Below, one piece after another: positions 8,940 to 56,795 of a stretch of 64,000 nucleotides of DNA. The DNA is from Vicinamibacterales bacterium (GTDB lineage Bacteria; Acidobacteriota; Vicinamibacteria; Vicinamibacterales; UBA8438): assembly GCA_965214845.1 (NCBI GenBank), contig CBDCCO010000007.1, positions 1,137,030 through 1,201,029 of the forward strand, given 5' to 3'. Made by a program: the position numbers and the translations under genes. Position 1 is the stretch's first letter. Each line of letters opens with the position of its first letter. Under the pieces are notes generated by a model. It saw only the letters and a list, made by a program, of their open reading frames with translations. It did no database searches and was not told the origin of the DNA.

Positions 8940-11900
8940 TCACAGCCGTGCGTGCGCCGCGCTCTCGTGCCCCCTTGCGGCGGCTCTCTCGGCAGTGTCC
9001 GCCGCGGCCGGGGCGTCGTGCGGCCCGTGGCGCCCGGCCGTCTCCAGGTCGCCGCCGCCGCCGATCTCGCGAATCGGGTCGTACGTCTCGAGCTGTTCGC
9101 CCCTGTCGCCCTCGACCGCGCCGCGGTCGTCCCCGGTGCGGCGGCCGATCGCCCCCAGGTCGGTCAGCTGCGCGTCGCTGGTGCGGGTGACGCCGTGCTC
9201 GTCGACCGTCTCGACGGGCACTTCCGCCTCGCCCGCGTGCATGATCAGGTGCTCGCACAGCGGCGTGTCCTCGTCGCGCGGGAACGCGACCAGGACGTGG
9301 GCGCCGGCCTCGGCGACCATGCGCTCGTTGCGCCGGTAGCCGGCGCCGCGGCCCTCCTCGTCCCAGGCCGCCTCGTACACGTCGCAGGGCACCCCGGCGT
9401 CCTCGCACCAGCGCAGCGCCTCGCGGTCGGCGCCCCGCGAGTCCCCCACGACGACCCGCATCGGCGCCCCGCCGATCCGCTGGCCGACCTCGTCGAGCTT
9501 CGCCCGCAGCAGGTTGGTCTCGGTCAGCGAGCGCGAGCCGCAGACCATCACGCGGACCTCGCGCGTGCCCTCGGCGGGCGCCGGGCGGGCCGCCGGCGGG
9601 CTCAGTGATTCGGGCGCCGGCGCGCGGGCCGGGCGGGGGCGCCGCGTCAGCCGGCCGTCGCGCTCGAGCTCGCGCTCGATCTCGCGGCCGACCTCCAGCG
9701 GGCCGCCGGGCGCGCCGAGCGCCTCGACCAGGTGCTCGAGGTCCGGCGCCGCAGGCCGCTCGCCCGCGCCGGCCAGCCGCGCCCGGACGTCCTCGTCGAT
9801 CCTGGCCTCGAGGTTCGCGGCCGCCTGGCGCATGCGCTCGAGCTGGGCCTCGCTCGCCCCGCCCTCGCGCATGCGCTCGACGTGAGCCTCGGCCGCGGCG
9901 ACGCGCGCGGCGTCGGGGTGCCCGGCGCGCAGCGCGTCGAGCCGGTCGTCGGGCGGCGCGTCGAGCAGGCGGCTCTCGAGCTCGTAGACGGCATCGTCGT
10001 AGCGCTTGAGCTGCTCGCCCGAGGCGCCGTGGCGCTCGAGCACGTCCCGCCGCCGGTTGATGGCATCGACGCTGCTCTTGCCCGGCTCGCAGGCGTGGGC
10101 GGCCACCGCGGCCTCCGGCTCGAGGTCGGCGCCGTCGTCCCAGGCCGGGATGTCGTCGACGTCGACCTCGACGGTTCCGAGCGCCTCGTCGAGCCGGCCG
10201 TCGCGTTGCGGCGCCCGCGGCTTCTGCGCGGCCTCGCGCTCCCGCTCGATCCCGGCCGCCCAGGCTGCGGCCTGGCTCAGCGGGCCGCCGTGGCAGGGCT
10301 CGGGCGCGCAGTGGCACGCCAGCGGCCGGCCGTCGAGCGCGGCGAGCTCCGCCAGGTCGACCTGGCCGCTGTCGATGCGCGCGGCGAGCACCTCGCGGTA
10401 CTGCTCGACAACCTCGCGGCGCTCGTCGGCGCCGGCTCCGCGGGCGAGCGGGAACGGGTTGCCCCACTTCGTGTTGCGGTCGATCCGCACGGCCGCGCCG
10501 GTGCGCACCTTCTCGAACGCCCCGGCCTCGCGCAGGTTGAGCAGCTCGGCGTCTCCCGCCGGCGCGCCGGGCTGCGCCCAGGGGGCGTCGGCGGCCCGCT
10601 CGCCCAGCCGGCGGGCCACACTCCGGGCGCTGCGGCCCGGGACGGGCTTGACGACGCCGTCCGCCGGGTCGGCCCGCCCGCGCGAGCGCGCCTCCTCGGT
10701 CCCGAGCTCGGCGGGCCCGGTCCCGCTGACCCGCGTCCATCCGTTCGTGGTGACCGTCTCGATCGGCACGCCGGCCCTCTCGGCCGCGTCCGCCCAGGCG
10801 CGCGGCATCGCGCGCCCCCCCAGCAGCAGGTGCGGGTCCTGCTCGTCGAGGATGCGCCGCGCCAGCCCGGCGCTCGTGTCCCCGGCCTCGGCCCGCAGGT
10901 ACATGTCGCAGCGGACGCCGCTCGTGCGGGCCCACTCGTGCGCGACGGCCGCCGCGCTGCTGGTCGCCACGGTCTCCTCGAAGGCGAGGCGCAGCGCCGC
11001 CGGGGCGCTCCGCTCCCGGACGGCGTCGAGCTTGGCCCGCAGCGCGGCCCGGTTCTCGCCGCTTGGCCCCGGGGCGACGGCGATGCGGATCTCGCCGTCG
11101 ATGGCCGGGTCGCCGTTGGCGAGCCGCGCCGCCGCCAGCTCGCCCGGGCCCTCGACGGGCGCGTGGAGCCTGGTGCGGCCCAACGCGTTGCCCATCGCCG
11201 CCAGGTCGGCCAGCTTGCCGTCCGCCGTGTGCGTCCAGGCCTCGCCGCCCTCCACCACGACCTGCTCGACCTCGAGCCGGCGCTCGCGCGCCTCGTGGAG
11301 CAGGTGCCGCGGGCGCTTGCCGTCGTAGTCGGGAAAGCCCACCACGACGTGCGGGTCGCCGCTGGCCAGCAGCGCCTCGTTGGCGCGGTAGCCGGCCGCC
11401 TTCGGGTGCGCGTCCCAGTCGGCCGGGTACGCCGCCGCCGGCGTGCCGGTCTCCCGGGCCCACGCCTCCACGGCCGCGTCGAGCTCGCCGGCGCCGCCGT
11501 GGAGCAGGCGCAGCGGGTGCGGCGAGGCCCGCTCGGCCAGCTCGTCGAGCTTGCGCCGGACCACCTCCGCGTCCCCGAAGCGGGGGCTGCCGGTCACGGC
11601 GACGCGGATCTCCGAGCGGCGGCTCTCGTCGGTCGGCCCGGCGGCGAAGCCCTGGTCCATCAGCTCGGAGAAGGCCATCGGGTCGTCGAGCCGGTCGAGC
11701 ACCCTGGCCCGGGCCATGCCCTGCAGCATCGCCATGCTGCGGGCCTGGCAGGCCAGGGCGTGGCCGCGGCGGTGGAACCTGTCGGTGAACGCGTCGTAGT
11801 CGACGGCGCCGACGCCGGCGGCCCGGGCCGAGCGGATCCAGAGCCGGTCGTAGAACTGCGTGCCGGTCTCGGCCGGCCAGAACAGGCGGCCGTCGTCGAA

Positions 11901-12206
11901 GCCGCGCAGCCGCCCGGCGCGGCAGCGGGTCCGGTCGAGCTGCTTGGCGTCGAAGCCGTTGGCGAGCACCCGCCCGGCGGGGCCGCCCTCGGGCCCGTAG
12001 CACTTGGCGGCCTGGTAGACCGCCTCGACGGGCTTGCCCGACGCCGGGTCCTCGAGGAACATCGCCGAGAGCTGGCGGCCGAGCGGCTGCGGGCTGCGGC
12101 TGCTGATCTCGAGCACCCGCAGGCTGTCGGGGGGGCCGTCCGGCCCGTGGTGCTCCCGTGCGAACGGCGGCCGGGCGAGCGGCGTGAACCAGGTCGTCGG
12201 CTTCAT
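8940..12206 (-). CDS. polyvalent protein: unknown N-terminal domain + DUF2493(SLOG) x3 (middle copy degenerate) + DUF4326
   Basis: 1088 aa. DUF2493-like units: IRVAVTGSPRF...LLHGGAGELDAAVEAWARETG...ADWDAHPKAAGYRANEALL...VVGFP and VRVMVCGSRSL...VVVGDSRGADREALRWCEDAG...AAWDEEGRGAGYRRNERMV...LVAFP. DUF4326-like unit: VRIDRNTKWGNPFPL...YREVL...LDGRPLACHCAPEPCHG. Confidence 0.8.
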   Translation of the reverse strand: MKPTTWFTPLARPPFAREHHGPDGPPDSLRVLEISSRSPQPLGRQLSAMFLEDPASGKPVEAVYQAAKCYGPEGGPAGRVLANGFDAKQLDRTRCRAGRLRGFDDGRLFWPAETGTQFYDRLWIRSARAAGVGAVDYDAFTDRFHRRGHALACQARSMAMLQGMARARVLDRLDDPMAFSELMDQGFAAGPTDESRRSEIRVAVTGSPRFGDAEVVRRKLDELAERASPHPLRLLHGGAGELDAAVEAWARETGTPAAAYPADWDAHPKAAGYRANEALLASGDPHVVVGFPDYDGKRPRHLLHEARERRLEVEQVVVEGGEAWTHTADGKLADLAAMGNALGRTRLHAPVEGPGELAAARLANGDPAIDGEIRIAVAPGPSGENRAALRAKLDAVRERSAPAALRLAFEETVATSSAAAVAHEWARTSGVRCDMYLRAEAGDTSAGLARRILDEQDPHLLLGGRAMPRAWADAAERAGVPIETVTTNGWTRVSGTGPAELGTEEARSRGRADPADGVVKPVPGRSARSVARRLGERAADAPWAQPGAPAGDAELLNLREAGAFEKVRTGAAVRIDRNTKWGNPFPLARGAGADERREVVEQYREVLAARIDSGQVDLAELAALDGRPLACHCAPEPCHGGPLSQAAAWAAGIEREREAAQKPRAPQRDGRLDEALGTVEVDVDDIPAWDDGADLEPEAAVAAHACEPGKSSVDAINRRRDVLERHGASGEQLKRYDDAVYELESRLLDAPPDDRLDALRAGHPDAARVAAAEAHVERMREGGASEAQLERMRQAAANLEARIDEDVRARLAGAGERPAAPDLEHLVEALGAPGGPLEVGREIERELERDGRLTRRPRPARAPAPESLSPPAARPAPAEGTREVRVMVCGSRSLTETNLLRAKLDEVGQRIGGAPMRVVVGDSRGADREALRWCEDAGVPCDVYEAAWDEEGRGAGYRRNERMVAEAGAHVLVAFPRDEDTPLCEHLIMHAGEAEVPVETVDEHGVTRTSDAQLTDLGAIGRRTGDDRGAVEGDRGEQLETYDPIREIGGGGDLETAGRHGPHDAPAAADTAERAAARGHESAAHARL

Positions 12207-12218
12207 CTTGCAGTCCTC

Positions 12219-12250
12219 GTTTCAATCCTCGCCACGCGAGCGTACCGCGC
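12219..12250 (-). CRISPR. solitary type I-C-like CRISPR repeat unit (partial) in the 5' UTR of the polyvalent gene
   Basis: On the minus strand: GCGCGGTACGCTCGCGTGGCGAGGATTGAAAC, then GAGGACTGCAAG, then the ATG at 12206. The last 14 nt, GCGAGGATTGAAAC, are shared with R2 at 55087-55118. It has a short CTCGC/GCGAG hairpin. The IS1634 end lies 33 nt upstream. Confidence 0.45.
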
Positions 12251-31878: not shown

Positions 31879-34185
31879 TCAGGAGTCCTGCAGGAAGGCC
31901 GGCGCGGTCTCGGCCGGCGCCGGGTCGAAGCCGCCGCCGGCACCGTCGGCCGCCGCCGGCTCGGGCTCGTCCCCGGCGCCGGCGGCGGGGCCCGGCCGCG
32001 GGCCGCGCGGCGCGGGCGCCGCCGGGTCGAGCCCCCGCGTGTCGAACGCCCGGAAGCCGGGCGCCGTCCACGCCAGCGCGCGCTCGCGCTGCCCGGCGTC
32101 GAGGTCCGCCGGGCCGCTGCCGGCGGCGAAGGCCGCCTCGAGCGCCGCCGCCAGCTCCGCCTTCCGGTCGCCCGCGTGGGCGTCGGCCCAGGCGTCGCCG
32201 AGGACGGCGCGCGCCGCCGCCAGCGCGTTGGCCTTGGTGACCCGGCCCCAGAACGCCCGCGCCGTCGGGCGGAAGCCCCTGGCGAACGGCACGTCGAGCC
32301 GCGCGACGGTCTCCTCGAACGCGCCCACGGCCTCGGGCTCGAAGGCCAGCTGCGGCTTGAGCGTCCAGGCCACCGCGGCGGCGAAGACCCGCTGCCTGTC
32401 GGCGGTCCCCAGCGCGCGGAACGCCCGGAAGCGCTCGGCGCCCGTGCCGGCGTCCAGCCAGTCGAGCGGGAGGCCCGCGCGCAGCGCCTCGAGCGCCGCC
32501 GTGGTCTCGCCGAAGACCGCGTCGTTCTGCTCCTCGGTGCCGTGGAACGTCTTGGCCGCCGTCGCCGACGAGGCGATCTGCAGGCTCCCGCTGCCGGTGT
32601 AGAGGCTCGTCAGCACGGACTCGGCGAGCTGGAACGCCGCCAGGTCGAAGGCGGCCTCGAAGTCGCCGGCCAGCGCCAGCTTGACGAGCGACGTCCGCAC
32701 GACCTTCATGTCCTCGCCGAGCGCGCCGCCGAACCCGGCGGCGCCGCGCGCGTCCCGGGCGCGCTCCTCGAGCGTCGGCAGGCGCGTCGGCGGCTGGTAG
32801 TTGTCCGGCTCCCTGCCGGCCCCGTCCGCCCCGTCGGCCGGGCGCGCCGTCTCGCCGTCCGTCTCGCCGTCCGGCCGGGCCCCGCCGGCCCCGGCCTCCC
32901 CGGCGGGCGCACGGTCGCTGCGGGCGGGCATGTCCGCCGCGTCGGCCTCGCGCACCAGGCCGGCGTGCTTGAGGACCGAGCCGTCGTCGGCGACGGTGAT
33001 CAGCACGCCGGCGTGCTTCATCTGCGCCGGGTCGTAGACGGCGCGCTGTTCCTTGAGCCTGTCGAGCGCCCGGTCGGCGGCGTGGAGCGTGTGCAGCTCC
33101 TGGGCCAGGGCCGCCTGGCGCTCCTCGATCTCCTCGCCGGACGCGTCGCCGCCGCTGTCGGGCGCGTCCGGCTCGCCGGCGAGCTGCTCGGCGCGCTCGT
33201 GCAGCGTGTCGAGCTCCGCCTCGATAACGGCGATCCGCTCGACGAGCCTCGCGTGCTCCTCCTGCTCGCCGGCGGTCAGCGCCCCCGGGCGGCCCTCGAT
33301 CCGGCCGAACCCCTGCAGCTCGTGGTAGGGCACGGTCAGCGCCGCCTCGGCCCAGCCCCAGTCGCCGCGCAGCTCGTCGCGCACGGCCTCGAGCCGGGCC
33401 GTCGCCAGCTCGTCCACGATCCGGACGTCGGTCAGGAACGTGTCGTCGTCGCCCTTGGCGAACAGGTCGCGCTCGATGCGGCCGCCGGCCTGCTGGTAGG
33501 CCTCGAGTCCGACGAGGCGCGCGCGCGCGTGGCTCGCCGCCAGGTGCTCGCGGAGCATCTCGCCGCGGATCCACCCGGGGTGCGGGCTGCCGTAGCCCTG
33601 ACGGCAGTGGTTCCAGACGTCGAGCTGGCGGCTCGTGTCGGCGCTGGCGGCGAACGCCATCAGCGCCTCGGTCTCCAGCTCGCCGCGCGTGGCGGCCGCG
33701 AGGATCTCCTCGTGGACGTCGGCCAGGCGCAGGTACTGCTCGACGGTGCGGGCCGTGGTCCCGAACCGCTCGGCGATGGCCGCCGGGCTCGCCCCGTCCT
33801 CGGTCAGCCGGCGGAAGGCCTCGTACCGGTCGACCGGGTGCATCGGCGCCCGCACCGTGTTCTCGGCCAGCGACACCTCGCGGTCGGCGGCCTTCGGCCC
33901 CGCCTGGATCCGGCACGGCACGGCGAAGCCGGCCGCGATCGTGCCCCTGGCGGCCAGGTCCCGGAGCGCCCGCAGGCGGCGCCCGCCGGCCACCACCGCG
34001 TAGCGCGGCTCGCTGGCCTTCGCGCGCGCGTTGCGGCGCACGACCAGGCTCGAGAGCACGCCGTGGGCGGCGATCGACGCCATCAGCTCGTCGTGCTCGC
34101 GCCCCTCGGCCGGGAGCCGGCGGGCGTTCGTCTTCGCCGGCTCCAGCTCGCTCAGCGGGATCATCTCGATCTCGTGGTTCTGCAT
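31879..34185 (-). CDS. large ParB-like nuclease/partition-family protein
   Basis: ATG at 34185 with GAGAGGAA upstream. MQNHEIEMIPLSELEPAKTNARR...VVAGGRRLRALRDL...SLAENTVRAPMHPVD...IAERFGTTARTVEQYLRLA is a ParB N-domain plus HTH. The extension is ~500 aa long. Confidence 0.8.
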   Translation of the reverse strand: MQNHEIEMIPLSELEPAKTNARRLPAEGREHDELMASIAAHGVLSSLVVRRNARAKASEPRYAVVAGGRRLRALRDLAARGTIAAGFAVPCRIQAGPKAADREVSLAENTVRAPMHPVDRYEAFRRLTEDGASPAAIAERFGTTARTVEQYLRLADVHEEILAAATRGELETEALMAFAASADTSRQLDVWNHCRQGYGSPHPGWIRGEMLREHLAASHARARLVGLEAYQQAGGRIERDLFAKGDDDTFLTDVRIVDELATARLEAVRDELRGDWGWAEAALTVPYHELQGFGRIEGRPGALTAGEQEEHARLVERIAVIEAELDTLHERAEQLAGEPDAPDSGGDASGEEIEERQAALAQELHTLHAADRALDRLKEQRAVYDPAQMKHAGVLITVADDGSVLKHAGLVREADAADMPARSDRAPAGEAGAGGARPDGETDGETARPADGADGAGREPDNYQPPTRLPTLEERARDARGAAGFGGALGEDMKVVRTSLVKLALAGDFEAAFDLAAFQLAESVLTSLYTGSGSLQIASSATAAKTFHGTEEQNDAVFGETTAALEALRAGLPLDWLDAGTGAERFRAFRALGTADRQRVFAAAVAWTLKPQLAFEPEAVGAFEETVARLDVPFARGFRPTARAFWGRVTKANALAAARAVLGDAWADAHAGDRKAELAAALEAAFAAGSGPADLDAGQRERALAWTAPGFRAFDTRGLDPAAPAPRGPRPGPAAGAGDEPEPAAADGAGGGFDPAPAETAPAFLQDS

Positions 34186-34279
34186 CTGTTGTTCCTCTCG
34201 TGTTGCGGCTGTGTCGCGCACGCCGCCCGGCGTCCGGGCGGCGCCGTCCCAACGTGGCCAATTCGCGTGCTGCGGTCCT

Positions 34280-35071
34280 CTAGGCCGTCCGCGCGGCGGA
34301 GGCTACCAGGCGGGCGGCGGTTACCAGCCGGGGGCGGATGCCCGTGGCCGGGGCCGCCGGCGCGGCGGGCCGGCCGCGGCGCCCGCGCCGCTTCGGGCGG
34401 CCGGGCGCCGCGGCGAAGCGCCACTGCTCGATGGCCAGGCGCATCTGGGCCACGTGGCCGGGCGAGGCCCCCGAGCGCTCGTAGCGCGCGAGGATCGCCG
34501 CGAAGGCGGCCGTCAGGTCCTCGTCGAGCAGCGCGGCCAGCCTGGCGAGCTGCGTCCTGTCGCCCGGGCCGCCGTCGTGGCGGTAGACCAGGACCGGCGG
34601 CCCGATGGGGGTCACGCGCCACGCGCGCCAGTGCCGCGTCCCGTCGGCCTCGCGGTCGACCGCGACCAGCACGCCGCCGACGGGCAGCTCGACGAGCCGC
34701 CCGCCGTGGCTTGCCCAGCCGTCGGGCGACTCGGCCGCGGGCAGCTCCTGCCGGAGGCGGACGCCGTGGACGGCCAGCGCGCCCGGGTCGTCGGTCACGT
34801 GCTCGAGCAGTACCAGGTACCGCGCCGGCAGCCGGTCGGCCGGGATGTAGCGCATCCTCCGCGACGTGCGCGCCGTCACGGCGCGCGCATCGGCCGGCCT
34901 CGGGGTGCACGCGGGCAGGCCTCCGGGCAGGACGCCCGGCTCGGCCCCGGGGTCGAGCTCGACCCGCAGCAGCTCGCGGCCGGACCACCGCGCCGGGTCC
35001 GGGGCATAGCCCGGCGGGTACGGTTCCGGGCGCTCGCCGAACGGTACGTAGCTGATCTCGGCGCTCTGCAT
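34280..35071 (-). CDS. hypothetical protein
   Basis: Internal ATG at 35071: MQSAEISYVPFGERPEPYPPGYAPDPARWSGRELLRVELDPG...RHWRAWRVTPIGPPVLVYRHDGGPGDRTQLARLAALLDEDLTAAFAAILARYERSG. No family recognised. Confidence 0.5.
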   Translation of the reverse strand: MQSAEISYVPFGERPEPYPPGYAPDPARWSGRELLRVELDPGAEPGVLPGGLPACTPRPADARAVTARTSRRMRYIPADRLPARYLVLLEHVTDDPGALAVHGVRLRQELPAAESPDGWASHGGRLVELPVGGVLVAVDREADGTRHWRAWRVTPIGPPVLVYRHDGGPGDRTQLARLAALLDEDLTAAFAAILARYERSGASPGHVAQMRLAIEQWRFAAAPGRPKRRGRRGRPAAPAAPATGIRPRLVTAARLVASAARTA

Positions 35072-39661: not shown

Positions 39662-39811
39662 TGGTGCAGGATAGTCCTTTCTCGCGGGCCGTGTCTTCAC
39701 GGGCGTCCGCGTCCTTTTGTCGTGTCTCATCCGGCCGCGGTTCCCTACGCTTGCGCCGGCCAGCGGTGGTCGCGGGCGTCGGGGTCGGCGTGAGCGGAAC
39801 GGGGTCTGGGC

Positions 39812-42800
39812 GTGGAACTTCTGCTGCAGGCGGTGCGGGGATCCTTCCTTCGAGTGCGCGTGGCGTCCGGCGCCGGCGCCCCGGTCCGGCTCCGGCTGCG
39901 CCGGCCGGTCCCGGGCGCTCTCGTCTGCGCCTGTGCGTTCGCCATCCTGCTGCCTGCGCCCGTCCGGGCGCAGGGCGAGTCGCCGTCGTTCACCTACGTC
40001 CTCGCGCCGCTGGCGGCGGCCGAGCCCGAGCACCCGGCGGACGGCAGCCGTGCCCGCCGGGACGTTCGCTTCGCGTTGACCCGGGTTCTGCAGGGCGGCG
40101 GCCGGCAGGGAGACACGGAGGGTCCCTGGGAGCCTCTGCAGGCGCAGTGGATCCACTGGTGGGTCGAGGCCGAGACCGCGGACAAGGGGCCGCCCGGCCG
40201 CGATGGCTCCGACTTCGACGGCCCGGACCGGCCGGCGGGCCGGCTGTCCGCCGCCAGCCTTGGCATGCGCGGGACGGCTTGCTTCGAGCCCCGCAACCCG
40301 ACCGTCGTCCTCGAGGGCGTCGAGGTGTTCTCCGACGATCTCGCCGAGGCGCGGGAGACCTTCGTCCTCTCGTTCTCGTACGCGACGGACCCGCTCGCCC
40401 CGACCGACCCTCCGGTGGGTTGCGTGGAGCTCCGGCGCGACGTAGCCCGGGTGCGCTCGGCCCTGGCCCAGCCGAAGAGCTTCTTCACCGTCGGCATCAC
40501 CGACCACCGGACCGAGCAGGCCCCCGAGCTGACGTCGCAGGCCGGGCCGCTCGAGCTCGAGGTGGCCGAGACCGACCGGGACTTCCGGGCCGCGCTCGTC
40601 ATCGAGACCGACCGCGTGAGTCCCGCCACCTACTGCTATCCGTTCCGGCTGGTGGTGGGCCGGGGCACCGCGTCGGACGCCGACGTGTGGACCGCGGGCG
40701 GCGGTCCGGGCGGGTACTTTGCCCTGCCCGTCGGCTCGAGTCTCGCGCGCTCGGACCACCTCGTGGTCGTCGGCGACACCGTCTCCGAGGCGGACGAGAC
40801 GTTCCATCTCGACTTTTACGACCCGGTCGTGGGCGATTCGTGCTCGCCGCCTTTCGGGGCGGGCGGCCCGCCGCGCTGGGAGGCGGTGGTCGTCATCGTC
40901 GACGACGATGAGCCGGACGGCGGCGGCCTGCCCTGGTTCGGCCTTGACCCGGCGCGCTGCCCGGACGCGCCGTCCGTCCTGGCCGTCACCGAGCCGCCGG
41001 CGGCGGACGGGCTGGTCGCCGTGAGTTTCGAGCTCGTCCACCGCGTGGTCACCCGGGGCCCGGGCCCGGGGCCGGAGAACCCGGACGGCGCCGGCGGGGC
41101 CGCGGTCTGTCAGGAGCCCGTTTCGGACGTCGTGGAGGTGACTGCGGTGCTGGCGCGCGCCGGCGGGGGCGGCGCGGAGCCGGGCGTTGATATCGTGCTG
41201 CCGCCGCACTCGCGCCTTCTGCGGTTCTACCGCGACCAGCCGGTGGCCGTCGAGCTGCTGGTCAGGGGCGATGGGCTGGCGGAGGGCGCCGAGCGGATCG
41301 ACCTCCTGCTCGGCACGGGCCGCGGCGGCAACGTGCGGCTGAGCGTGGTCATCGAGGACCACGAGCTCCGGGTGGAGGTGGCCGCGGGCCGGGCGGCGTC
41401 GCTCACGCGCAGCGGCCGGCTCCTGGGCTCGGCCGTGACCGGTGCGCTCGCTGCGCGCTTCTCGTGCGCCGGCTCGGCCGCCTGCGACCCGTTCGAGGAC
41501 GAGTCGGAGACGCTCTTCCCCGGCGGCGGCCGGGTGCCCGCCGGACGGCGCGGCGCGGCCGCCGCACGGCGCCTCGGGCAGGCGGCGCGGGTGTTGCTCC
41601 CTGCCGGCGCGCCCGCGGCGGGTCCCGCCGGCCTCGGCCGAGTCGGCCGTGGCTTCCGCCACCGGGCGGCGGCGGTGATGGGGCCGGCCGCGGCCGGCGA
41701 CCCGCTCCGGCGCGTCGGGCGGCTGGTCGAGGCGCTCTCCTCGCAGGGAGACCTGCTCGGCTGGCTCGACCCGTCCGCGCGCCGCCCGCGGTCGCCGTGG
41801 TCGGTCTGGTTCCGCGGCTCGTCGCAGATGGACCGTGACGCCGCCGGCGCCGGGCGGTCCGTGGAGACGGGGCTGGTGACCGCGGTCGCGGGCGTCGACC
41901 GCCGGGTGGGCCGGGTCCGCATCGGCGGGCTCTACGGCTGGTCGTTCGGGGCCTACAGCCGCCGGCACGGCGCCGGGTCGCACGCGACGGACGTGGCCGA
42001 CGTGCCTGTGAGCTGGCAGTTCGCGGCGCCGTACGTCGGCGTCGCGCCGCACCCGAGGGTGCGGCTGTGGACCTCGGTCGGCGCCGCCTGGGGCGGCCCG
42101 GCCAGCGGCGGGCCCGGCGCCGAGGCGTCGACCGGCGCCGCTCCCGGCGGCGCCGAGGCCCGCGTCGGCCTCTGGCTGTACTCCGGCGGCGGCTCGCTGT
42201 CGCTGGCCCGGGCCGGCGTTGTCGAGCTCGAGCTCGAGGGCGACGTCTTCCGGGTGCGCGTCGAGCACGGCGGCGGCGGCGTGATCGGCGACGCGTCGTC
42301 GGCCCTGCGCGGACGCGCGGGCGTCCGGGCCGGGATGCGGGTCGGCGGCCCCCGCGCCCCGTCGCACCTGTCGCTGGCGGTCTGGCAGCGGTGGGACGCC
42401 GGCCGCGACCTCGAATGGGTGCGCCGCCTCGGGCCGCGCGCCGTGGCGATGGCCACCGATCTGGGCGTCGACTACCGCTGGCAGCGTCCCGGCTCGCGCC
42501 TGGCGTGGACGGCCGCGGCCGAGGTCGAGGTCGTTGGTGGCGGCGGCGGCGCCCACCGCTCGAAGCGGGTGTCAGCGGGCGGCGGCCTGCGCTGGGGAGC
42601 GTCGGAGACCGGCGAGGGCTGGTCGCTGGCGGTGCGGCCGGGCTACGGCCCGGCGGCGGGGCTCGGGCCCTCGGCGTGGTGGGATGCCGCGGCGCCGGGC
42701 GCCGCGTCCCTGTTCGGGCCGGCGCGGCCGCGCGTGGACACGGACGTCGGCTACGTCTTCGCCGGCGGGGCCGCGGCCGTCGTCACGGCTTCGTCGCCCC

Positions 42801-42877
42801 TGGCGGGCGGCGGGCCGGACGGCCTCGGGCTCGAGCGCGGGGCGTCGGTGGCCCTGCGCTTCGACCGCGGGTGGTGA
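39812..42877 (+). CDS. autotransporter-like outer-membrane protein with Calx-beta-like passenger modules
   Basis: Signal-like ...ALVCACAFAILLPAPVRAQG. It has repeated modules that end in ..DDLAEARETFVLSFS and ..VSEADETFHLDF..VVVIVDDDE. The C-terminal ~300 aa show alternating beta-barrel patterning and end in ..VALRFDRGW. Confidence 0.65.
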   Translation: MELLLQAVRGSFLRVRVASGAGAPVRLRLRRPVPGALVCACAFAILLPAPVRAQGESPSFTYVLAPLAAAEPEHPADGSRARRDVRFALTRVLQGGGRQGDTEGPWEPLQAQWIHWWVEAETADKGPPGRDGSDFDGPDRPAGRLSAASLGMRGTACFEPRNPTVVLEGVEVFSDDLAEARETFVLSFSYATDPLAPTDPPVGCVELRRDVARVRSALAQPKSFFTVGITDHRTEQAPELTSQAGPLELEVAETDRDFRAALVIETDRVSPATYCYPFRLVVGRGTASDADVWTAGGGPGGYFALPVGSSLARSDHLVVVGDTVSEADETFHLDFYDPVVGDSCSPPFGAGGPPRWEAVVVIVDDDEPDGGGLPWFGLDPARCPDAPSVLAVTEPPAADGLVAVSFELVHRVVTRGPGPGPENPDGAGGAAVCQEPVSDVVEVTAVLARAGGGGAEPGVDIVLPPHSRLLRFYRDQPVAVELLVRGDGLAEGAERIDLLLGTGRGGNVRLSVVIEDHELRVEVAAGRAASLTRSGRLLGSAVTGALAARFSCAGSAACDPFEDESETLFPGGGRVPAGRRGAAAARRLGQAARVLLPAGAPAAGPAGLGRVGRGFRHRAAAVMGPAAAGDPLRRVGRLVEALSSQGDLLGWLDPSARRPRSPWSVWFRGSSQMDRDAAGAGRSVETGLVTAVAGVDRRVGRVRIGGLYGWSFGAYSRRHGAGSHATDVADVPVSWQFAAPYVGVAPHPRVRLWTSVGAAWGGPASGGPGAEASTGAAPGGAEARVGLWLYSGGGSLSLARAGVVELELEGDVFRVRVEHGGGGVIGDASSALRGRAGVRAGMRVGGPRAPSHLSLAVWQRWDAGRDLEWVRRLGPRAVAMATDLGVDYRWQRPGSRLAWTAAAEVEVVGGGGGAHRSKRVSAGGGLRWGASETGEGWSLAVRPGYGPAAGLGPSAWWDAAAPGAASLFGPARPRVDTDVGYVFAGGAAAVVTASSPLAGGGPDGLGLERGASVALRFDRGW

Positions 42878-45656: not shown

Positions 45657-46142
45657 CTACCGCTGATACCCGTTTGGGCCGGTATCGATCGTGAAGAAAC
45701 CTTGTCTCTGACTGAACAGCACGTCATGCCGATCGAAGAATCCGCTCTGTCCGAGCAAGCCAATACCCTGCGCGTCCAGGCCTTCCGTAAATCCGGTGAT
45801 GATGTCTAAACGGATCACGTGGAAGGGAGCCTGTTCTCCGGCTCTCGTGAAGCCGATTTCGACGTTGACCTGGGCATGGTAAACGACCGCGCTTGACCCC
45901 ACGCCCATCGTGAGGGAGCTGGGCATGTCCAGCACATTCAGGCCGAGGCGGTGAGCGAGCGACAGCGGGAACACACATGAGTCCGCACCGGTGTCCAGGC
46001 AGACGGTGCAGGGCAATCTTCTTGCCTGTCCGGGTAACGCGACGCCTGCAATCAACCAGGGGCGCAGGACGATGTGTCCGTTGGGGTGAGTAGCGGTGGG
46101 TCCGATCGGTACGCGGGTGTAGCTGCAACTGATTGAGGGCAC
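45657..46142 (-). CDS. retropepsin-like (clan AA) aspartic protease
   Basis: ...LPCTVCLDTGADSCVFPLSLAHRLGL...GVGSSAVVYHAQVNVEIGF... contains the D-T-G-A active-site motif. I chose the GTG at 46142, which overlaps the upstream TAG by 1 nt. Local GC is visibly lower than the surrounding sequence. Confidence 0.65.
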   Translation of the reverse strand: MPSISCSYTRVPIGPTATHPNGHIVLRPWLIAGVALPGQARRLPCTVCLDTGADSCVFPLSLAHRLGLNVLDMPSSLTMGVGSSAVVYHAQVNVEIGFTRAGEQAPFHVIRLDIITGFTEGLDAQGIGLLGQSGFFDRHDVLFSQRQGFFTIDTGPNGYQR

Positions 46143-46357
46143 TAGAGAAATGCCATCGCTTTCTCGGGCACCCTGATGATGAGAGGATTCAGTTCTCCCT
46201 TGGACTCGGCTTCGGCGACAACCGCAGAGATGGTGGAGCCGTGGGCGACCACGCGATCGTGAGTCGACGCAATGGCCACCCACGATCCAAGAGGGATGCC
46301 TTTGGTCAGGTTCTCGATGTCGAGTGCCGGGATCTCCGGAACTGCTGCATTGGCCAT
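46142..46357 (-). CDS. DUF5678-like small protein (antitoxin-like partner of the protease)
   Basis: 71 aa: MANAAVPEIPALDIENLTKGIPLGSWVAIASTHDRVVAHGSTISAVVAEAESKGELNPLIIRVPEKAMAFL, with a GGAGA RBS. The G.WVAI...VVA.G.T pattern is as I recall for DUF5678. Confidence 0.55.
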   Translation of the reverse strand: MANAAVPEIPALDIENLTKGIPLGSWVAIASTHDRVVAHGSTISAVVAEAESKGELNPLIIRVPEKAMAFL

Positions 46358-46545: not shown

Positions 46546-47857
46546 TAAGGATTCTCGCCAAAATAAATTAACCGTTCAGGTCGGATCTGGGTAGCAGGCT
46601 GTAGTTCCACTCACCATGAAACGCGTCGCGTTTGATGGACAGCCTGTCCATCTGGTCGTCCGTGACCTCCCGACCGGTTGGATAGTCGGCCTCGTCCAAC
46701 TCCGACCGGATGGCCAAACCGCCCTGCGTAGTCGTACCGCCGATCAGGTTCACCACCACCTCGTGACTCACCAGCGGCCGGCCCCGCCAGTTCTCCGTGA
46801 TGTGGCAGAACATCCGGTGCTCGATCTTGTTCCACTTGCTGGTCCCCGGCGGAAAGTGGCACACCGAGATCCGTAACCCCAGCGCGTCGGCCAGCTTCTG
46901 CAACTCGAACTTCCACAGCCGGCTGCGGCTGCTGTTCGAACCGCCCCCGTCGGCGGTGAGCAGCAATCGCGTGGCCGACGGATACGCCTGACGCCCCATT
47001 TGCAGCCACCAGCGCCGAACCGTCTCCACGGCGAACTCCGCCGTGTCGTGGTCAACGCCCACGCTCACCCAACCCGTGTTCGCCGTCAGGTCGTAGACCC
47101 CGTAGGGGATCGCCTTGCCGAGTTCCCGATCGATGAAGTCATGGACCTTCACTTCCTCGGGCTGGCCCTTCGGACGCCATTCCCGGCCGCCGTTGCGGTA
47201 TCGGCCGACCAACTCCTTCTTCTTCGTGTCGATCGAGGCGACCGGCTGGCCCAAGCGTTGAAACGCCCGCACGCGACGGGCGATGCGCCGGAATTGCGCA
47301 TCCCGATCCGGATGCTGGCGGCCTTCGAGCGTCTTGCGATTGGCCTGCAAGCTATAGCCCAATTCGTGCAGCAGCCGGTTCACCGTGCGCTCGCTGACCC
47401 GATGGCCTTCAGCCCCCAATTGCTCCGCCAAGCGCGCCGCGCTGCTGCATGTCCAGCGCAGAGGTCCCTGCGGGTCGCCCCGGGTGAACGGGTCGAGCAG
47501 ATGCTCCAACGCCTTGACCAGACCCGGGTCGCGTTCCGCCGCCGCCTTGCGGCCACCGCCCGGGGCACGAATCCGCGCACCGCCCGCCCGCGGCACCGGC
47601 GGCGTGGCCGAATCCAGTTCCCTCACGCCGGCCCGCACCGTGCCGCGCGACAGCCCGGTCGCCTCGGCAACCCGCGTAATTCCGCCGCGGCCAATGGCGC
47701 GGGCTTCCGCCGCGGCCCACAGGCGTCGCGTGCGTTCGTCCAACAGCGGCCCCAACACGTTGAACTTTCCTTGCACCGCTTGCGTTACGGCGTTCATGAC
47801 GCCGAGCATAGCAGAGCGGCCGGCATAACGGGCAAGTTATTCTGGCGGGAGTCCTAA
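46546..47857 (-). mobile_element. ISAzo13-family insertion sequence
   Basis: Imperfect terminal inverted repeats: TAAGGATTCTCGCCAAAATAA.. at 46546 versus the reverse complement of ..TTATTCTGGCGGGAGTCCTAA ending at 47857, about 20 of 26 positions matching. It has a single transposase ORF. Confidence 0.7.
46568..47809 (-). CDS. ISAzo13-family (Rhodopirellula-type DDE) transposase
   Basis: 413 aa: ...LRWTCSSAARLAEQLGAEGHRVSERTVNRLLHELGYSLQANRKT...SIDTKKKELVG...LLLTADGGGSNSSRSRLWKFELQKLADALGLRISVCHFPPGTSKWNKIEHRMF... Confidence 0.85.
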   Translation of the reverse strand: MLGVMNAVTQAVQGKFNVLGPLLDERTRRLWAAAEARAIGRGGITRVAEATGLSRGTVRAGVRELDSATPPVPRAGGARIRAPGGGRKAAAERDPGLVKALEHLLDPFTRGDPQGPLRWTCSSAARLAEQLGAEGHRVSERTVNRLLHELGYSLQANRKTLEGRQHPDRDAQFRRIARRVRAFQRLGQPVASIDTKKKELVGRYRNGGREWRPKGQPEEVKVHDFIDRELGKAIPYGVYDLTANTGWVSVGVDHDTAEFAVETVRRWWLQMGRQAYPSATRLLLTADGGGSNSSRSRLWKFELQKLADALGLRISVCHFPPGTSKWNKIEHRMFCHITENWRGRPLVSHEVVVNLIGGTTTQGGLAIRSELDEADYPTGREVTDDQMDRLSIKRDAFHGEWNYSLLPRSDLNG

Positions 47858-47967: not shown

Positions 47968-48167
47968 GCGGCAGAACGCTGGCGGCGCCCCTGCCGCCGA
48001 GGCCGCACCCGAGCGGGGGTACCGCTACCTCGCTGATGCCGTGGCGCAGGCACGCCGGGCCGATGGCGCGGCAGGACGCTGGCGGCGCCCCTGCCGCCGA
48101 GGCCGTAGCCGAGCGGGGGCACCGCCCCCTCGCTGATGCCGCGGCGCAGGCACGCGGGGCCGATGGC
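47968..48167. repeat. 2 x 100-bp tandem duplication inside macrodomain gene B
   Basis: The units at 47968-48067 and 48068-48167 both begin GCGGCAG[A/G]ACGCTGGCGGCGCCCCTGCCGCCGAGGCCG.. 100 is not a multiple of 3, so the duplication shifts the frame. Confidence 0.85.
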
Positions 48168-48480
48168 GGCGATGGTCGCCTCGACCAGCTCGGGCGGCGA
48201 GGGATCGCGCCGGCGGCTGGTCGGCGCCAGCAGCACCCAGCCATCGGCCCGGCGCCAGAGGGCGGCCGTTCCCTCGCCGAGCTCCTCCGAGCGCAGCATC
48301 GTCCGGCGTCCGGCAGGCCGGCACGATCGCCGGCCAGCGGCGGGCGGCTTCGAGAGGGGAAGAGCCCCGGCGCGCGGGTCTCCGGGACGATGCGGCCCGA
48401 CGGCCTGCTGCCCGCCCGGATGGCTGGGCCGCAGACCCCTGCAACCTGCCGCCGGACGGATCGGCCAATCCACCTGCAAC

Positions 48481-54409: not shown

Positions 54410-54522
54410 TCTCGGCGGTGTCTCCGGCGCGGCCGGCGCTATCCTGGTTGTCAGCCGACAGCCTAGCGCAACGGCCCGCGGGTGCGCCGGCAGGGGCCCG
54501 GTCGGCGGGGGTGGTCTTGACG

Positions 54523-55032
54523 ATGCGACTGGTTCTCTTCGTGCTGTACTACGGGCTGGCGGTACTGCTCGGCTTCATCCTCCGCGGGCGTTTCGACCAG
54601 TGGATGTACGCGAAGCCGCACATGCAGGAATCGCTCGTGCGCTATGCGTCGGAGGTGATCCACGCGGTCGAGCACGGGGCCGACGAGGTCCCGCCGCCGC
54701 CCCTGACCGTCGACGCCGACGCCTTCTCGCCGGTGGTGCTGCAGGGGCCGCTCGGGCGCGTCGCCCGTGCCCCCGACGCCGCGGCCGGCGAGCCGGCGGG
54801 CGCGCTCGACGTTGCCCCGGAGCCCGGGTCCGCGGACGCGCGGCCGCCCGTCCCCGAGGGCGGTGTTCCCGGCGCGGCGGACGGGCGGTCCCAACATGTT
54901 GGAGCCGGTCCCCCGGCCGCGGGCGCCGGGCCCGCGCCCCGGGCCCGCGTCGCCCCGGGGGCGATTGACCCCGGGGCGGACACCGACGCGGCCGCCTCGG
55001 GCGGCGGACCCGCCCCGATCCGGCCGGAATAG
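54523..55032 (+). CDS. small membrane-anchored protein with low-complexity tail
   Basis: Internal ATG at 54523: MRLVLFVLYYGLAVLLGFILRGRFDQWMYAKPHMQESLVRYASEVIHAVEHG.. The Ala/Pro/Gly tail contains the CCAACATGTTGG palindrome variant (54891-54902), so the true 3' end is uncertain. Confidence 0.4.
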   Translation: MRLVLFVLYYGLAVLLGFILRGRFDQWMYAKPHMQESLVRYASEVIHAVEHGADEVPPPPLTVDADAFSPVVLQGPLGRVARAPDAAAGEPAGALDVAPEPGSADARPPVPEGGVPGAADGRSQHVGAGPPAAGAGPAPRARVAPGAIDPGADTDAAASGGGPAPIRPE

Positions 55033-55042
55033 CGTGCGGCGG

Positions 55043-55118
55043 ACCGCTCCCGGCACGGGAGCAGGGATTGAAACTGAAACGTAGAGGCTGCTCCCCAGGT
55101 GGGAGCGAGGATTGAAAC
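55043..55118 (+). CRISPR. tandem pair of type I-C-like CRISPR repeats with a 12-nt pseudo-spacer (solitary-repeat / mini-array-like)
   Basis: R1 55043-55074 ACCGCTCCCGGCACGGGAGCAGGGATTGAAAC; gap TGAAACGTAGAG; R2 55087-55118 GCTGCTCCCCAGGTGGGAGCGAGGATTGAAAC; the ATG follows at 55119. Against the I-C repeat as I recall it (GTCGCGCCCCGCACGGGCGCGTGGATTGAAAC), R1 matches 25/32 and R2 23/32, with a compensatory G-C to T-A change in the stem. Confidence 0.7.
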
Positions 55119-56795
55119 ATGCCAAATGATGCAACCGACGCGGCCTGGCCGGCCGGCGGCGAGCCGCCGGGGTCGGCGCCCGAGACCTACGCCTTTGGCG
55201 GGGTCGAGTACACCGCGCACAGGATCGCGCGGCTCTTTCCCCTCATCGAGGGCAAGGCCTTTGACGAGATGGTCAAGGACGTCGAGGCCAATGGGCTGCG
55301 CCACCCGGTCGTGCGCCGGGGCACCGAGATCATCGACGGTCGCAACCGGTTCCGGGCGGCCCTGGCCGCGAAGGTCCCGGTGACGTTCTGCGACCTTGAG
55401 CCCGGCCAGCATCCGGTCCACGTCATCGTGTCCGAGAACCTCCACGTGCGTTCCCTCTCGCAGAGCGAGAGGGCCATGATCGCCGCAAACATCCGGCGCC
55501 TGGCCCCGGGTGCGTTCGGGGTTCCGCCGAGGGGCGTCGGCGGCCCGGTCGGCGACGAGGCACGTGCCGCCGCCGGCGAAGAACTGGCGAAGGGCGGGGC
55601 TCCCGGCTCCGGAGCCGGTCCGGCCCCGGCTCCGTCCCCGGCGGCGCGGGCCGCCGATGCGGCGGCCGACGGCGACGGCAAGGCTGACGCCAACGGCGAG
55701 CCGGCAGGCGTCGTGCGCGAGCAGGAGCGCGTGTCGGCCGCGCTGGGCGTTTCGCCGGAGTACACCCGCCAGGCCGAGCGCCTCATGGAGCAGGCTCCCG
55801 AGCTTGCCTCCGCGGTCAGCCGCGGCGACGTAAAGGTTGGTGACGCCTACGCCGTCCGGGAGCAGCCGGAGGACGTACGCCGGCAGGCCCTTGAGGACGT
55901 GAAGGCGAAGCGTGCCCCGACGCTCGTCGGTGCGGTCGAGCAGCGCACCGGGCGGCCGTCGAAGGCCCGTGCGGCGGCGCCGCGCCGCCCGCCGGCGCCC
56001 CCCAAGGCCCCGAAGGCACCGAAGGCCGATGACGACGCCGGGCGGCCCGCGCTCCCGCCGCTGCCCACGGCCGGGAAGGCTCCGGCCGCGGCTCCGGCCG
56101 CGGCCGGCTCTCCGCCGGCCCCCGGGCCCGCTGCCGCGCCTGCGGCCGCCCCGGCGGCCAGGGCGCCGGCAGGAGGCCAGGAGGACGCGCCCGCCGCGGG
56201 CGGGCCGGACGGCGGCGGCGCGCCCGCGGATGCGCCCGCGGACGAGGCCGCCGGCTACGAGGACGTCCACCCGGACCTGATCGTCCCGCGCCTGCTGCTC
56301 GCGTGCGTGAGGAAGGCCTTCGATGGGTCGATCGACCTCGACCCGTGCTCGAACGCTGATGCGCAGGACCGCATCGCGGCCACCGAGTGGTATTCGGCCG
56401 AGCAGGACGGGCTCTCGCTCGCGTGGCGCGGCGCCGTGTGGGTGTTCCCGCCGCTGGCGCTGGCCCCGGCCTTCGCCTCGAAGCTCGAGAGCGAGCTCCG
56501 CGCCGGGAACGTCTCCCGCGCGGCGCTGCTCGCGCCGGCCGACCTGAGCCGGGACTGGGCGGGCCGGCTGCTGCGCATGCCGCAGCTGAGCGCCTTGGCG
56601 GTGCAGCACGGCCGGCAGCCGTTCGATGTCTCCGGCGACAGCCGGAAGCTGCGCGTCCCGGGGGCGATGGCGGTCTACCTGTTCGGTCTCGGCGGCGCCC
56701 CGGCCGCGGGCGGCCGCGACCCGCTGGTCCAGAATCTGGGCGTCTGGGGCCACGTGCTCCGCAACGTGGCGGGCCAGCCCGCGCAGTCCGCGTGA
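55119..56795 (+). CDS. ParB-like nuclease domain fused to a phage-Dam-type N6-adenine methyltransferase-like domain
   Basis: N-terminus: HRIARLFPLIEGKAFDEMVKDVEANGLRHPVVRRGTEIIDGRNRFRAA (ParB/Srx fold). A Pro/Ala-rich linker follows. C-terminus: SIDLDPCSNA...YSAEQDGLSLAWRGAVWVFPPLA..AALLAPADLSRDW.. (Dam_phage-like), where motif IV reads FPPL instead of (D/N)PP(Y/F). Confidence 0.7.
   Translation: MPNDATDAAWPAGGEPPGSAPETYAFGGVEYTAHRIARLFPLIEGKAFDEMVKDVEANGLRHPVVRRGTEIIDGRNRFRAALAAKVPVTFCDLEPGQHPVHVIVSENLHVRSLSQSERAMIAANIRRLAPGAFGVPPRGVGGPVGDEARAAAGEELAKGGAPGSGAGPAPAPSPAARAADAAADGDGKADANGEPAGVVREQERVSAALGVSPEYTRQAERLMEQAPELASAVSRGDVKVGDAYAVREQPEDVRRQALEDVKAKRAPTLVGAVEQRTGRPSKARAAAPRRPPAPPKAPKAPKADDDAGRPALPPLPTAGKAPAAAPAAAGSPPAPGPAAAPAAAPAARAPAGGQEDAPAAGGPDGGGAPADAPADEAAGYEDVHPDLIVPRLLLACVRKAFDGSIDLDPCSNADAQDRIAATEWYSAEQDGLSLAWRGAVWVFPPLALAPAFASKLESELRAGNVSRAALLAPADLSRDWAGRLLRMPQLSALAVQHGRQPFDVSGDSRKLRVPGAMAVYLFGLGGAPAAGGRDPLVQNLGVWGHVLRNVAGQPAQSA

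Follow-up and report, generated by a model that had tools for sequence, protein, structure and literature searches.

The locus

At positions 55043-55118 of the plus strand of the window, the 64-kb stretch of DNA analysed here, a 76-nt element composed of two hairpin-forming units lies immediately ahead of a gene for a ParB-like protein. The first unit, R1 (ACCGCTCCCGGCACGGGAGCAGGGATTGAAAC, 55043-55074), is separated from the second, R2 (GCTGCTCCCCAGGTGGGAGCGAGGATTGAAAC, 55087-55118), by the 12-nt pseudo-spacer TGAAACGTAGAG (55075-55086), whose first 6 nt repeat the end of the handle, and the start-to-start distance between both units is 44 nt. In R1, the arms of the stem (55046-55051 and 55057-55062) enclose the loop GGCAC, and the junction A21 G22 leads to the handle GGATTGAAAC at 55065-55074; in R2, the arms are found at 55090-55095 and 55101-55106, enclosing the loop CAGGT, and are followed by the junction G21 A22 and the handle at 55109-55118. 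The final base of R2 is position -1 of the ATG at 55119, and the GAGGA at 55107-55111, contained in this second unit, has that ATG 7 nt downstream and is, judging by its sequence, likely to be the Shine-Dalgarno of the ParB-like gene. A previous sequence-only reading of this DNA had described the two units, the gap of 12 nt, their abutment to the start codon and the Shine-Dalgarno spacing of GAGGA, and all these details agree with the sequence.

The ORF preceding the element (54418..55032, plus strand, GC3 0.88) is translated into a protein with a transmembrane helix and a P/A/G-rich tail. Its stop codon, whose context is kept in the closest homologous locus, lies 10 nt ahead of R1, and no sigma-70-like promoter was found between this stop and R1. 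Thus, the two units are most likely transcribed within an operon, as part of the 86-nt intergenic region that separates this ORF from the ParB-like gene.

The downstream gene (55119..56795, plus strand) encodes a protein of 558 aa, with a ParB/Spo0J-like N-domain plus HTH, a low-complexity linker and a weakly Dam-like C-domain. A profile of eight ParB-like homologues matched Spo0J (1vz0) with an E of 3.4e-6 and Noc with an E of 0.01, and Pfam ParB_N was detected in 3/8 of these homologues. The matches of the C-domain to Dam/TIGR01712 are weak (E ~3e-4 to 1e-3). The catalytic motif of N6-adenine methyltransferases is (D/N)PP(Y/F/W); where it would be expected, this C-domain carries FPP(L), F443 and P444 being invariant in the homologues. 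Of the label ParB-methyltransferase that had been given to this gene, the first half is therefore well founded, while the second finds a weak Dam-like domain with a departing motif. Protein-based scans of metagenome and viral collections returned no ParB-methyltransferase relatives.

The GC content of the window is ~75%, and its appearance is that of an integrated conjugative element, with genes for a Strawberry-notch-type helicase, two ParB-like proteins, a type IA topoisomerase, an SLT transglycosylase, UvrD and AbiEii, together with three IS transposases, one of them of Rhodopirellula type. Loci homologous to the window carry genes for TrbC and Macro-domain proteins, and flanks with planctomycete-specific domains; the genome that holds the window is planctomycete-like. 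The genes near the two units appear to be anti-defence-like. As had been noted before, cas genes are absent from the window, none being detected by Pfam scans of ~45 ORFs or by tblastn with full I-C protein sets, and the 64 kb contain no further CRISPR arrays.

Degenerate derivatives of type I-C repeats

To address the relationship of both units to type I-C repeats, a covariance model was made from a varied set of 17 genuine I-C repeats, in which eight different stems are represented, and was run on both strands of the window with filters off. R2 (26.9 bits, E 3.7e-5) and R1 (25.0 bits, E 1.3e-4) are the only significant matches in the 64 kb; beyond a marginal site at 12219-12240, which is discussed below, all the rest have an E of at least 0.86. 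Each unit forms a stem of 6-7 bp with a 5-nt loop, the same fold as the genuine repeat consensus, with a free energy of -15.0 kcal/mol in R1 (z -3.2) and -11.5 kcal/mol in R2. In folding of a longer transcript, the stems of R1 and R2, being identical, are also able to pair between units. The stem-plus-handle pattern occurs twice in the window (0.00 copies expected from shuffles), and ATTGAAAC occurs three times (0.09 expected). Rfam has no family covering R1 or R2 and gave nothing at gathering thresholds, the sub-threshold matches being to the 3' end of CRISPR-DR9 only.

A scan of one genome per species with the pattern GCTCCC-N4-6-GGGAGC-NN-GGATTGAAAC, several positions of which were left free, gave more than 118 stretches among the matches listed. 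Most of these are arrays that repeat regularly every ~66 nt, with copy numbers reaching 118, and arrays from Planctomycetota MAGs are, likewise among the matches listed, included. In one of these MAGs (L107), the array adjoins genes for Cas5c, Cas8c/Csd1, Cas7/Csd2, Cas4 and Cas1c, which assigns this repeat family to type I-C and, together with the covariance-model matches, bears out the earlier description of the units as type I-C-like. Both R1 and R2 agree with the family consensus at 26/32 positions, and with individual array repeats at 24-28/32. The type I-C stem (12/12) and handle (10/10, GGAUUGAAAC being part of the 11-nt 5' handle) are kept in both units. It had also been suggested that a stem position changed from G-C to T-A in a compensatory way; this proposal has to be withdrawn, as the GCTCCC/GGGAGC stem is a family-level variant of many genuine arrays and did not arise here.

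Outside the stem and the handle the situation is different. In 1,235 genuine units from 48 arrays, among the matches listed, four positions are invariant or nearly so: T2 (100%), C3 (100%), G21 (99.9%) and Y22 (100%). R1 departs from them with C2, A21 and G22, and R2 with C2, T3 and A22. Solitary or mini-array viral units keep them to a large extent, with Y22 in 22/22 and the canonical GTC start in 19/22. Since positions that are invariant in 1,235 genuine units are broken in them, R1 and R2 should be regarded as pseudo-repeats. These four positions correspond to the stem base and the flanks of the Cas5c cut, which leaves the 11-nt handle. According to reports, what Cas5d recognises is the base of the stem together with the 3' overhang; the broken positions being the stem base and the site that Cas5d reads, binding or cleavage of R1 and R2 by Cas5c is uncertain.

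The distribution of the differences between the two units is not that of random decay. Of the 9 positions at which R1 and R2 differ, none falls within the 12 of the stem or the 10 of the handle (P ~4e-7 for random placement), so that 9 of the 10 positions available outside stem and handle are different. It is thus the parts which a Cas protein would hold that have stayed intact.

As an array, the pair could hardly be functional. Its 12-nt spacer, previously judged too short for a real one, compares with ~33-36 nt in genuine arrays, and it is accompanied by neither cas genes nor further units in 64 kb. The length of this spacer, below that of any described mini-array, Cracr or crlRNA, also counts against the interpretation of the pair as a mini-array, which is proposed below.

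A reduced Cascade as probable partner

A locus carrying units with the same peculiarities has been found in contig CAYGCV010000064.1 (L323, also L031), of 15.7 kb and 74% GC. Its gene order is ParB-HTH, a 278-aa ORF, Cas5c, Cas8c, Cas7c and an irregular pseudo-array, the latter consisting of ~11 degenerate units with irregular spacers of 25-50 nt directly 3' of cas5c-cas8c-cas7c; cas3, cas4, cas1 and cas2 are absent within 13.8 kb. The Cas5c is closely related to Cas5d nucleases that have been characterised. Beyond two proteins that will be described below (P0133 and P0254), the nearest relatives of its Cas8c, at ~60% identity, sit in complete canonical I-C loci with large regular arrays, and the L323 type is therefore a reduced derivative of such systems. 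In a literature search, no description of a Cas3-less I-C system linked to ParB was found, and this ParB-linked Cas3-less I-C Cascade with its irregular pseudo-array is a notable by-product of the analysis.

The L323 units carry both R1- and R2-type junctions (GGGAGCAGGGATTGAAAC and GGGAGCGAGGATTGAAAC, with the variants GCGAGG and GCAGGG), and a purine at position 22 is present in 10/15 units of L323 and L094, the second contig of the same MAG, versus 0/1,235 canonical units. Duplicated handle fragments follow two of the L323 units, as in the window, and something similar is seen in a viral locus (L202). The 3' 18 nt of R1 are identical to those of L323 unit 7, and the 3' 18 nt of R2 to those of unit 5. 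The 5' ends of R1 and R2 (ACC and GCT, respectively) are unlike those of most L323 units. As a whole, R1-R2 can be aligned, with its order preserved, to two consecutive L323 units (7-8), between which the spacer is 38 nt long, versus 12 nt in the window.

Further links between this locus and the window's element are their GC contents (74% and ~75%) and their shared ParB-like and UvrD homologues. The large ParB-like protein of the window (31882..34302, minus strand, 807 aa, with Pfam ParB_N and HTH_ParB) is 41-43% identical to its L323 homologue over ~600-650 aa (tblastn, E 6e-88 to 8e-116), and the two UvrD proteins are 40% identical. L094 has no genes in common with L323 or the window.

The earlier reading hinged on the existence of a type I-C system in the host. 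Two Cas8c proteins bear on this point: P0133, obtained by protein search and 90% identical to the L323 Cas8c, and P0254, obtained from a cluster look-up. Both are on a contig of 7,280,722 bp, a length also recorded for the contig of the window's own protein and for that of its 81% paralogue P0002, and their assignment to the window's genome is based on this agreement in length. The window's genome very probably encodes an L323-type reduced I-C Cascade twice, which is a strong inference and not a demonstration, so that the earlier reading does not appear to fail on this point. The likely partner of R1-R2 is a reduced, apparently Cas3-less and adaptation-less Cascade, and not a canonical host immune system.

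Taking into account all these features, it is proposed that R1-12 nt-R2 is a degenerate two-unit I-C mini-array, with the organisation PsiR-PsiS-PsiR, acting as a decoy or processing site cognate to the reduced L323-type Cascade, an interpretation to which we give about even chances. A second interpretation, possible although distinctly less probable, is that the element is a relic, that is, a fragment of an L323-type array comprising two adjacent units whose spacer was internally deleted, which either arrived in this intergenic region or stayed there as a remnant. It would no longer interact with Cas proteins, only the 3' end GAGGATTGAAAC having been kept, as Shine-Dalgarno and spacer, and its hairpins might survive because they are neutral or stabilise the mRNA. 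The alignment with the adjacent L323 units 7-8 would be expected from such an origin, the breakage of otherwise invariant repeat positions is consistent with it, and a spacer of 12 nt is non-functional by any known standard. On the other hand, each unit preserves 22/22 stem and handle positions, whereas the two differ from each other at 9/10 of the rest, and for a Shine-Dalgarno ~5 nt are enough, with no need for a pair of perfect 6-bp hairpins and their 10-nt handles; moreover, the genome apparently has a cognate Cascade.

The L323 pseudo-array also bears on whether the 12-nt sequence could work as a guide. Several L323 spacers have a common TACCGCGC seed, suggesting that this pseudo-array holds a regulatory rather than an immune repertoire. 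By analogy, R1-R2 might give rise to a regulatory crRNA-like RNA of the Cracr/CreR/crlRNA kind, whose 12-nt Psi-spacer would guide the nuclease-free Cascade to a partially complementary, TTC-flanked promoter and repress it; this promoter might be that of the cas operon, or belong to some gene carried by a competing element. The PsiR-PsiS-PsiR layout is that of Cracr and crlRNA genes, I-C cases and shortened Psi-spacers on mobile elements are documented, and short duplexes can repress, as exemplified by the 11 bp of tracr-L. However, 12 nt amount to only two Cas7 steps, versus the 16-27 nt of the characterised cases, and half of them duplicate the handle. No TTC-flanked target of TGAAACGTAGAG is present in the window, in L323 or in the seven homologous loci recovered (L001-L007), and searches with the 12-nt pseudo-spacer, with the first 12 nt of the ORF (taken from an 18-nt ORF-start query) and with the L323 spacers returned chance-level 2-mismatch matches only. 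A guiding role is therefore regarded as improbable. In the opposite direction, 4,458 I-C spacers were compared with the element family, and no full-length protospacer was found.

A possible third unit

On the minus strand, at 12219..12240, the covariance model gives a marginal match (15.7 bits, E 0.054), which could represent a third degenerate unit. It consists of a hairpin of 7 bp with a 5-nt loop, followed by GCGA and then by GGATTGAAAC, the gap between hairpin and handle being 4 nt versus 1 nt in the repeats. With a second GAGGA beside it, this third copy (GCGAGGATTGAAAC) precedes the ATG at 12206 by 12 nt. The similarity of its stem to those of the repeats is not significant (p 0.16-0.9). 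Taking into account this result and the marginal match, it was rejected as a true repeat and kept as a possible degenerate unit.

The gene that it precedes (8940..12206, minus strand) encodes a polyvalent protein of 1088 aa with a NADAR domain of the DarT1-antitoxin type, two SLOG/YAcAr domains and DUF4326. Thus, the GGATTGAAAC motif is found upstream of 2 of the ~50 genes in the window, both of them anti-defence-type genes of the element. The location of the third copy in a leader, as in the case of R2 and again beside a GAGGA, fits the relic interpretation.

The possibility that the hairpin and its motif are a generic leader or translation element, occurring ahead of many unrelated genes, had been raised as a way in which the CRISPR reading could fail. 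This was discarded: GGATTGAAAC appears only three times in 64 kb, with a single and marginal copy besides R1 and R2, and the other TGAAAC sites are unrelated. An ECF-type promoter with TGAAAC as its -35 was dropped as well, because the motif is 0-12 nt from start codons. Two of the unrelated TGAAAC sites are the terminal inverted repeats of the IS at 12283-14255.

Conservation in homologous loci

Among the seven homologous loci, only one contains a close orthologue of the ParB-like gene (L004, 80% protein identity). Hairpin 1 is still present in this locus, and so is AGGATTGAAAC ahead of the ATG, but hairpin 2 lacks its 5' half and handle 1 is missing, and its score with the covariance model falls to 12 bits (E ~1). 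The intergenic region of L004 is 53% identical to that of the window, with 30 gap columns, versus 85-94% and no gaps in the flanking coding sequences. In homologues with 36-51% identity there is no repeat-like unit; these have short leaders with GGAG 9-11 nt ahead of the start, and their leader hairpins score nothing with the covariance model. Taking into account the decay in L004 and the absence of the element from the distant homologues, the two-unit form is lineage-specific and weakly constrained.

Since all the homologue leaders carry GGAG 9-11 nt before the start, a Shine-Dalgarno role for the 3' end of R2 is plausible. The same leaders, as well as the concentration of indels in the intergenic region of L004 and the retention in it of AGGATTGAAAC before the ATG despite the loss of handle 1 and half of hairpin 2, are what the relic interpretation would predict.

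The presence of a GC hairpin just ahead of the Shine-Dalgarno in distant homologues could also point to another explanation, according to which the two GCTCCC-N5-GGGAGC palindromes, at a distance of 44 bp from each other, serve as DNA operators bound by some regulator, for example one of the ParB/HTH proteins, or else are generic GC hairpins of a leader rich in GC, and their likeness to repeats is incidental. The palindromes are spaced by about four helical turns and stand directly 5' of a gene for a ParB-like protein. Nevertheless, this explanation would leave without a reason the likeness of 26/32, which in both units and with the correct geometry includes a perfect 10-nt handle outside the palindrome; in addition, no other GC hairpin in the window is significant with the covariance model, and those of the distant homologues score nothing. 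For these reasons we consider it very improbable.

A model for the two-unit element

If R1-R2 is a decoy or processing site for the reduced Cascade, as proposed above, the following steps may be envisaged. The operon transcript would read through the 86-nt intergenic region, and each unit would fold into a repeat hairpin. Cas5c would then bind these hairpins, recognising the stem base and the 3' overhang, and would probably cut 3' of the stem. The cuts would release a 44-nt RNA made up of an 11-nt handle, the 12 nt of the pseudo-spacer and a 21-nt hairpin. An RNA of this length could not direct Cascade to DNA and, in a Racr- or Cracr-like manner, would be a sink for its subunits. What remained ahead of the ParB/Dam-like ORF would be the 11-nt leader AGGAUUGAAAC, with the Shine-Dalgarno in it. 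While the identity of the repeats, their hairpins, their position, their operon and mobile-element context and the existence of a cognate Cas8c on a contig of equal length are directly observed, the transcription of the units, their binding or cleavage by Cas5c and any anti-CRISPR or regulatory effect are inferred.

A bolder variant of this model, which seems unlikely to us, is that the CRISPR repeat has been exapted as a cis-acting 5'-UTR module for processing and ribosome binding. In such a case, the Cas5c of a mobile-element Cas3-less Cascade would cut the operon transcript at R1 and R2, switching on or off the translation of the ParB/Dam-like protein, and perhaps that of the NADAR protein, depending on the presence of that Cascade in the cell. 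The coupling between expression of the ParB-like gene and Cas5c cleavage is at this point purely conjectural; were it true, it would constitute a Cas-dependent post-transcriptional circuit between co-resident mobile elements.

Both main interpretations have consequences beyond this locus. Should the units be active, mRNAs could be among the substrates of Cas5c, and dispersed RNA partners could exist for those I-C Cascades that lack a nuclease and reside on mobile elements. If the units are relics, the locus documents the decay of array fragments and their reuse as expression signals.

Comparison with known systems

Only recently have the repeat mimics carried by phages and plasmids come to be seen as part of the CRISPR arms race, of which they form a layer. 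Solitary repeat units (SRUs) are known to act as RNA anti-CRISPRs, small RNAs whose binding to Cas proteins blocks interference, including a type I-C example, and RacrIC1 is found 11 nt after acrIC5, with which it is bicistronic (Camara-Wilpert et al. 2023, PMC10651486). R1-R2 resembles RacrIC1 and the SRUs in that it mimics an I-C repeat, is carried by a mobile element away from any cas genes, lies ~10 nt after a gene with which it is presumably co-transcribed, and has anti-defence neighbours; the host, in addition, apparently has the matching subtype. In SRUFinder, an SRU is an intergenic unit with at least 90% identity and at least 90% coverage to a known repeat and with no other repeat, be it full or partial, within 100 bp (PMC10651486). 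The best identity of R1-R2 is 28/32 (87.5%, among the repeats collected here and not in the SRUFinder database), below the 90% limit, and its two units, 44 nt apart start to start, are not solitary. It also differs from RacrIC1 and the SRUs in that invariant positions are broken, in its fusion to a start codon and in its location on what appears to be an ICE of a planctomycete-like genome. The kinship to RNA anti-CRISPRs that the sequence-only reading had envisaged survives, thus, as far as the presence of I-C derivatives on a mobile element among anti-defence-type genes is concerned; the broken invariant positions, the departure from SRUs and Racrs and the loss of the two-unit form in L004 weaken it.

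A second group of mimics comprises the viral and plasmid Cracr RNAs, in which shortened Psi-spacers reprogram Cascade, including I-C arrays, and the host I-C crlRNAs, processed by Cas5c to the 11-nt handle (CreA/CreR; I-C SRUs regulating Nezha/Gabija) (bioRxiv 10.1101/2024.10.29.618823, 10.1101/2024.12.27.630466). R1-R2 agrees with them in its PsiR-PsiS-PsiR layout, a spacer-like sequence with a repeat-like one on each side and not belonging to a normal array, as well as in its degenerate repeats, a spacer shorter than those of immune crRNAs, mobile carriage and an expected processing by Cas5c to the 11-nt handle. The target of these RNAs is defined by at least 9 PAM-proximal bp to a cas, toxin or defence promoter by a 5'-TTC PAM. 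Unlike them, R1-R2 has a Psi-spacer of 12 nt versus 16-27 nt, half of which duplicates the handle, no TTC-PAM target was found for it in the loci searched, and its second repeat doubles as a ribosome binding site.

The concept of mini-arrays in phages and mobile elements is reportedly due to Faure et al. in 2019. Isolated I-C pairs with spacers of 15-17 nt are present in viral and metagenomic contigs, and four mini-arrays (L130, L179, L256 and L278) share with R1-R2 the occurrence of two I-C units away from cas genes on mobile DNA. These mini-arrays, in contrast, keep the canonical GT junctions and are not fused to the start of an ORF. Shmakov et al. defined a mini-array as repeats 15-60 bp apart, a range outside which the 12 bp of R1-R2 fall.

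The L323 locus is similar to the window's element in its junction variants, its handle duplications, its ParB-like and UvrD homologues and its GC content, and its Cas8c is ~90% identical to P0133/P0254. It differs in being cas-adjacent and in having ~11 units with spacers of 25-50 nt, whereas R1-R2 is a two-unit element ahead of a gene.

Falling outside the functional repeats, the SRUs and Racrs and the described mini-arrays, R1-R2 is best filed among the CRISPR-repeat mimics of mobile elements. Those described until now come mostly from Proteobacteria, Firmicutes and Actinobacteria, and are either solitary repeats that copy the original faithfully (Racr) or mini-arrays whose guides can be used (Cracr/crlRNA). 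R1-R2 would extend them to a conjugative element, with a short and non-guiding pseudo-spacer, a fusion to the ribosome binding site and a probable partner in the form of a reduced, ParB-linked Cascade.

Reduced type I-C locus and related elements

L323 (= L031; contig CAYGCV010000064.1, 5867-13671) is a reduced type I-C locus, in which genes for a ParB-HTH protein (682 aa) and a 278-aa unknown protein are followed by those for Cas5c, Cas8c and Cas7c and by a cluster of degenerate repeat units. This cluster comprises about 11 units with irregular spacers of 25-50 nt, several of which have the seed TACCGCGC in common. Across the 13.8 kb of L323, the genes cas3, cas4, cas1 and cas2 were not found; L324 and L325, showing 60% Cas8c identity to it, are complete canonical I-C loci. 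A search of the published literature found no description of a reduced locus of the L323 type.

The window's genome appears to encode two Cas8c proteins of the L323 type (P0133 and P0254), together with two ParB-MT paralogues, 81% identical to each other, one of which is the protein encoded downstream of the R1-R2 repeat pair. P0133, P0254 and the paralogue P0002 are encoded on a 7,280,722-bp contig. This double set of Cas8c and ParB-MT proteins suggests the presence of two related elements in this genome, with which Cascade possibly travels.

Repeat units and mini-arrays

Repeat units directly followed by a partial copy of their own handle were observed in the window (55075-55080), twice in L323 (13460-13470 and 13672-13680) and in the viral locus L202 (~8525-8545). 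This partial duplication recurs at four unrelated places, with the unit end and its duplicate reading ATTGAAAC and TGAAAC, GGGTTGAAAC and TGGGTTGAAAC, or GGATTGAAAC and GATTGAAAC.

Isolated two-unit I-C-like mini-arrays are found on viral and metagenomic contigs (L179, 1937-2013; L256, 2632-2705; L278, 1155-1237). Their pseudo-spacers measure 15-17 nt and their units differ by compensatory stem changes and by loop changes; they are candidate I-C Cracr/Racr-type RNAs.

NADAR polyvalent gene and other window features

The third GGATTGAAAC of the window sits in the leader of a gene (8940-12206, minus strand) encoding a 1088-aa polyvalent protein, whose architecture, with a NADAR domain of DarT1-antitoxin type, two SLOG/YAcAr domains and DUF4326, is counter-defence-like. 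An IS element (12283-14255), whose 16-bp terminal inverted repeats (CTAGCCGGAAGTTTCA ... TGAAACTTCCGGCTAG) match perfectly and which carries a DDE_Tnp_1 transposase (12364-14100, minus strand), is inserted ~77 nt upstream of the NADAR gene ATG, separating this gene from a divergent SLT transglycosylase gene.

The 11-mer GAGGACTGCAA lies within 3 nt after the repeat handle both next to this third copy of GGATTGAAAC, at 12207-12218 (minus strand), and in a one-spacer array at L011 (~5440-5475, minus strand) in a Chthoniobacteraceae MAG. The rough expectation is ~0.01; since the likeness stops at the 11-mer, the match is probably due to chance.

A Rhodopirellula-type DDE transposase (46568-47809, minus strand; PF07592, E 9e-145), adjoined by a retropepsin-like aspartyl protease ORF (45657-46283), lies in a stretch of lower GC (64%) at 46-48 kb. 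A 100-nt tandem duplication occupies 47968-48202, and a tandem repeat of 5-6 copies of a ~108-nt unit (25683-26311; 79-84% matches) is apparently coding. The 91-nt tRNA-Arg(ACG) called by ARAGORN at 40645-40735 (plus strand), within a 1027-aa ORF (39794-42877), is probably a false positive.

C-domain of the ParB/Dam-like protein

N6-adenine methyltransferases carry the motif (D/N)PP(Y/F/W), whereas the Dam-like C-domain of the 558-aa ParB-MT protein has VWVFPPL at that place (56440-56460, residues ~441-447); residues F443 and P444 do not vary among 8 homologues. The C-domain may lack catalytic activity or have been repurposed.
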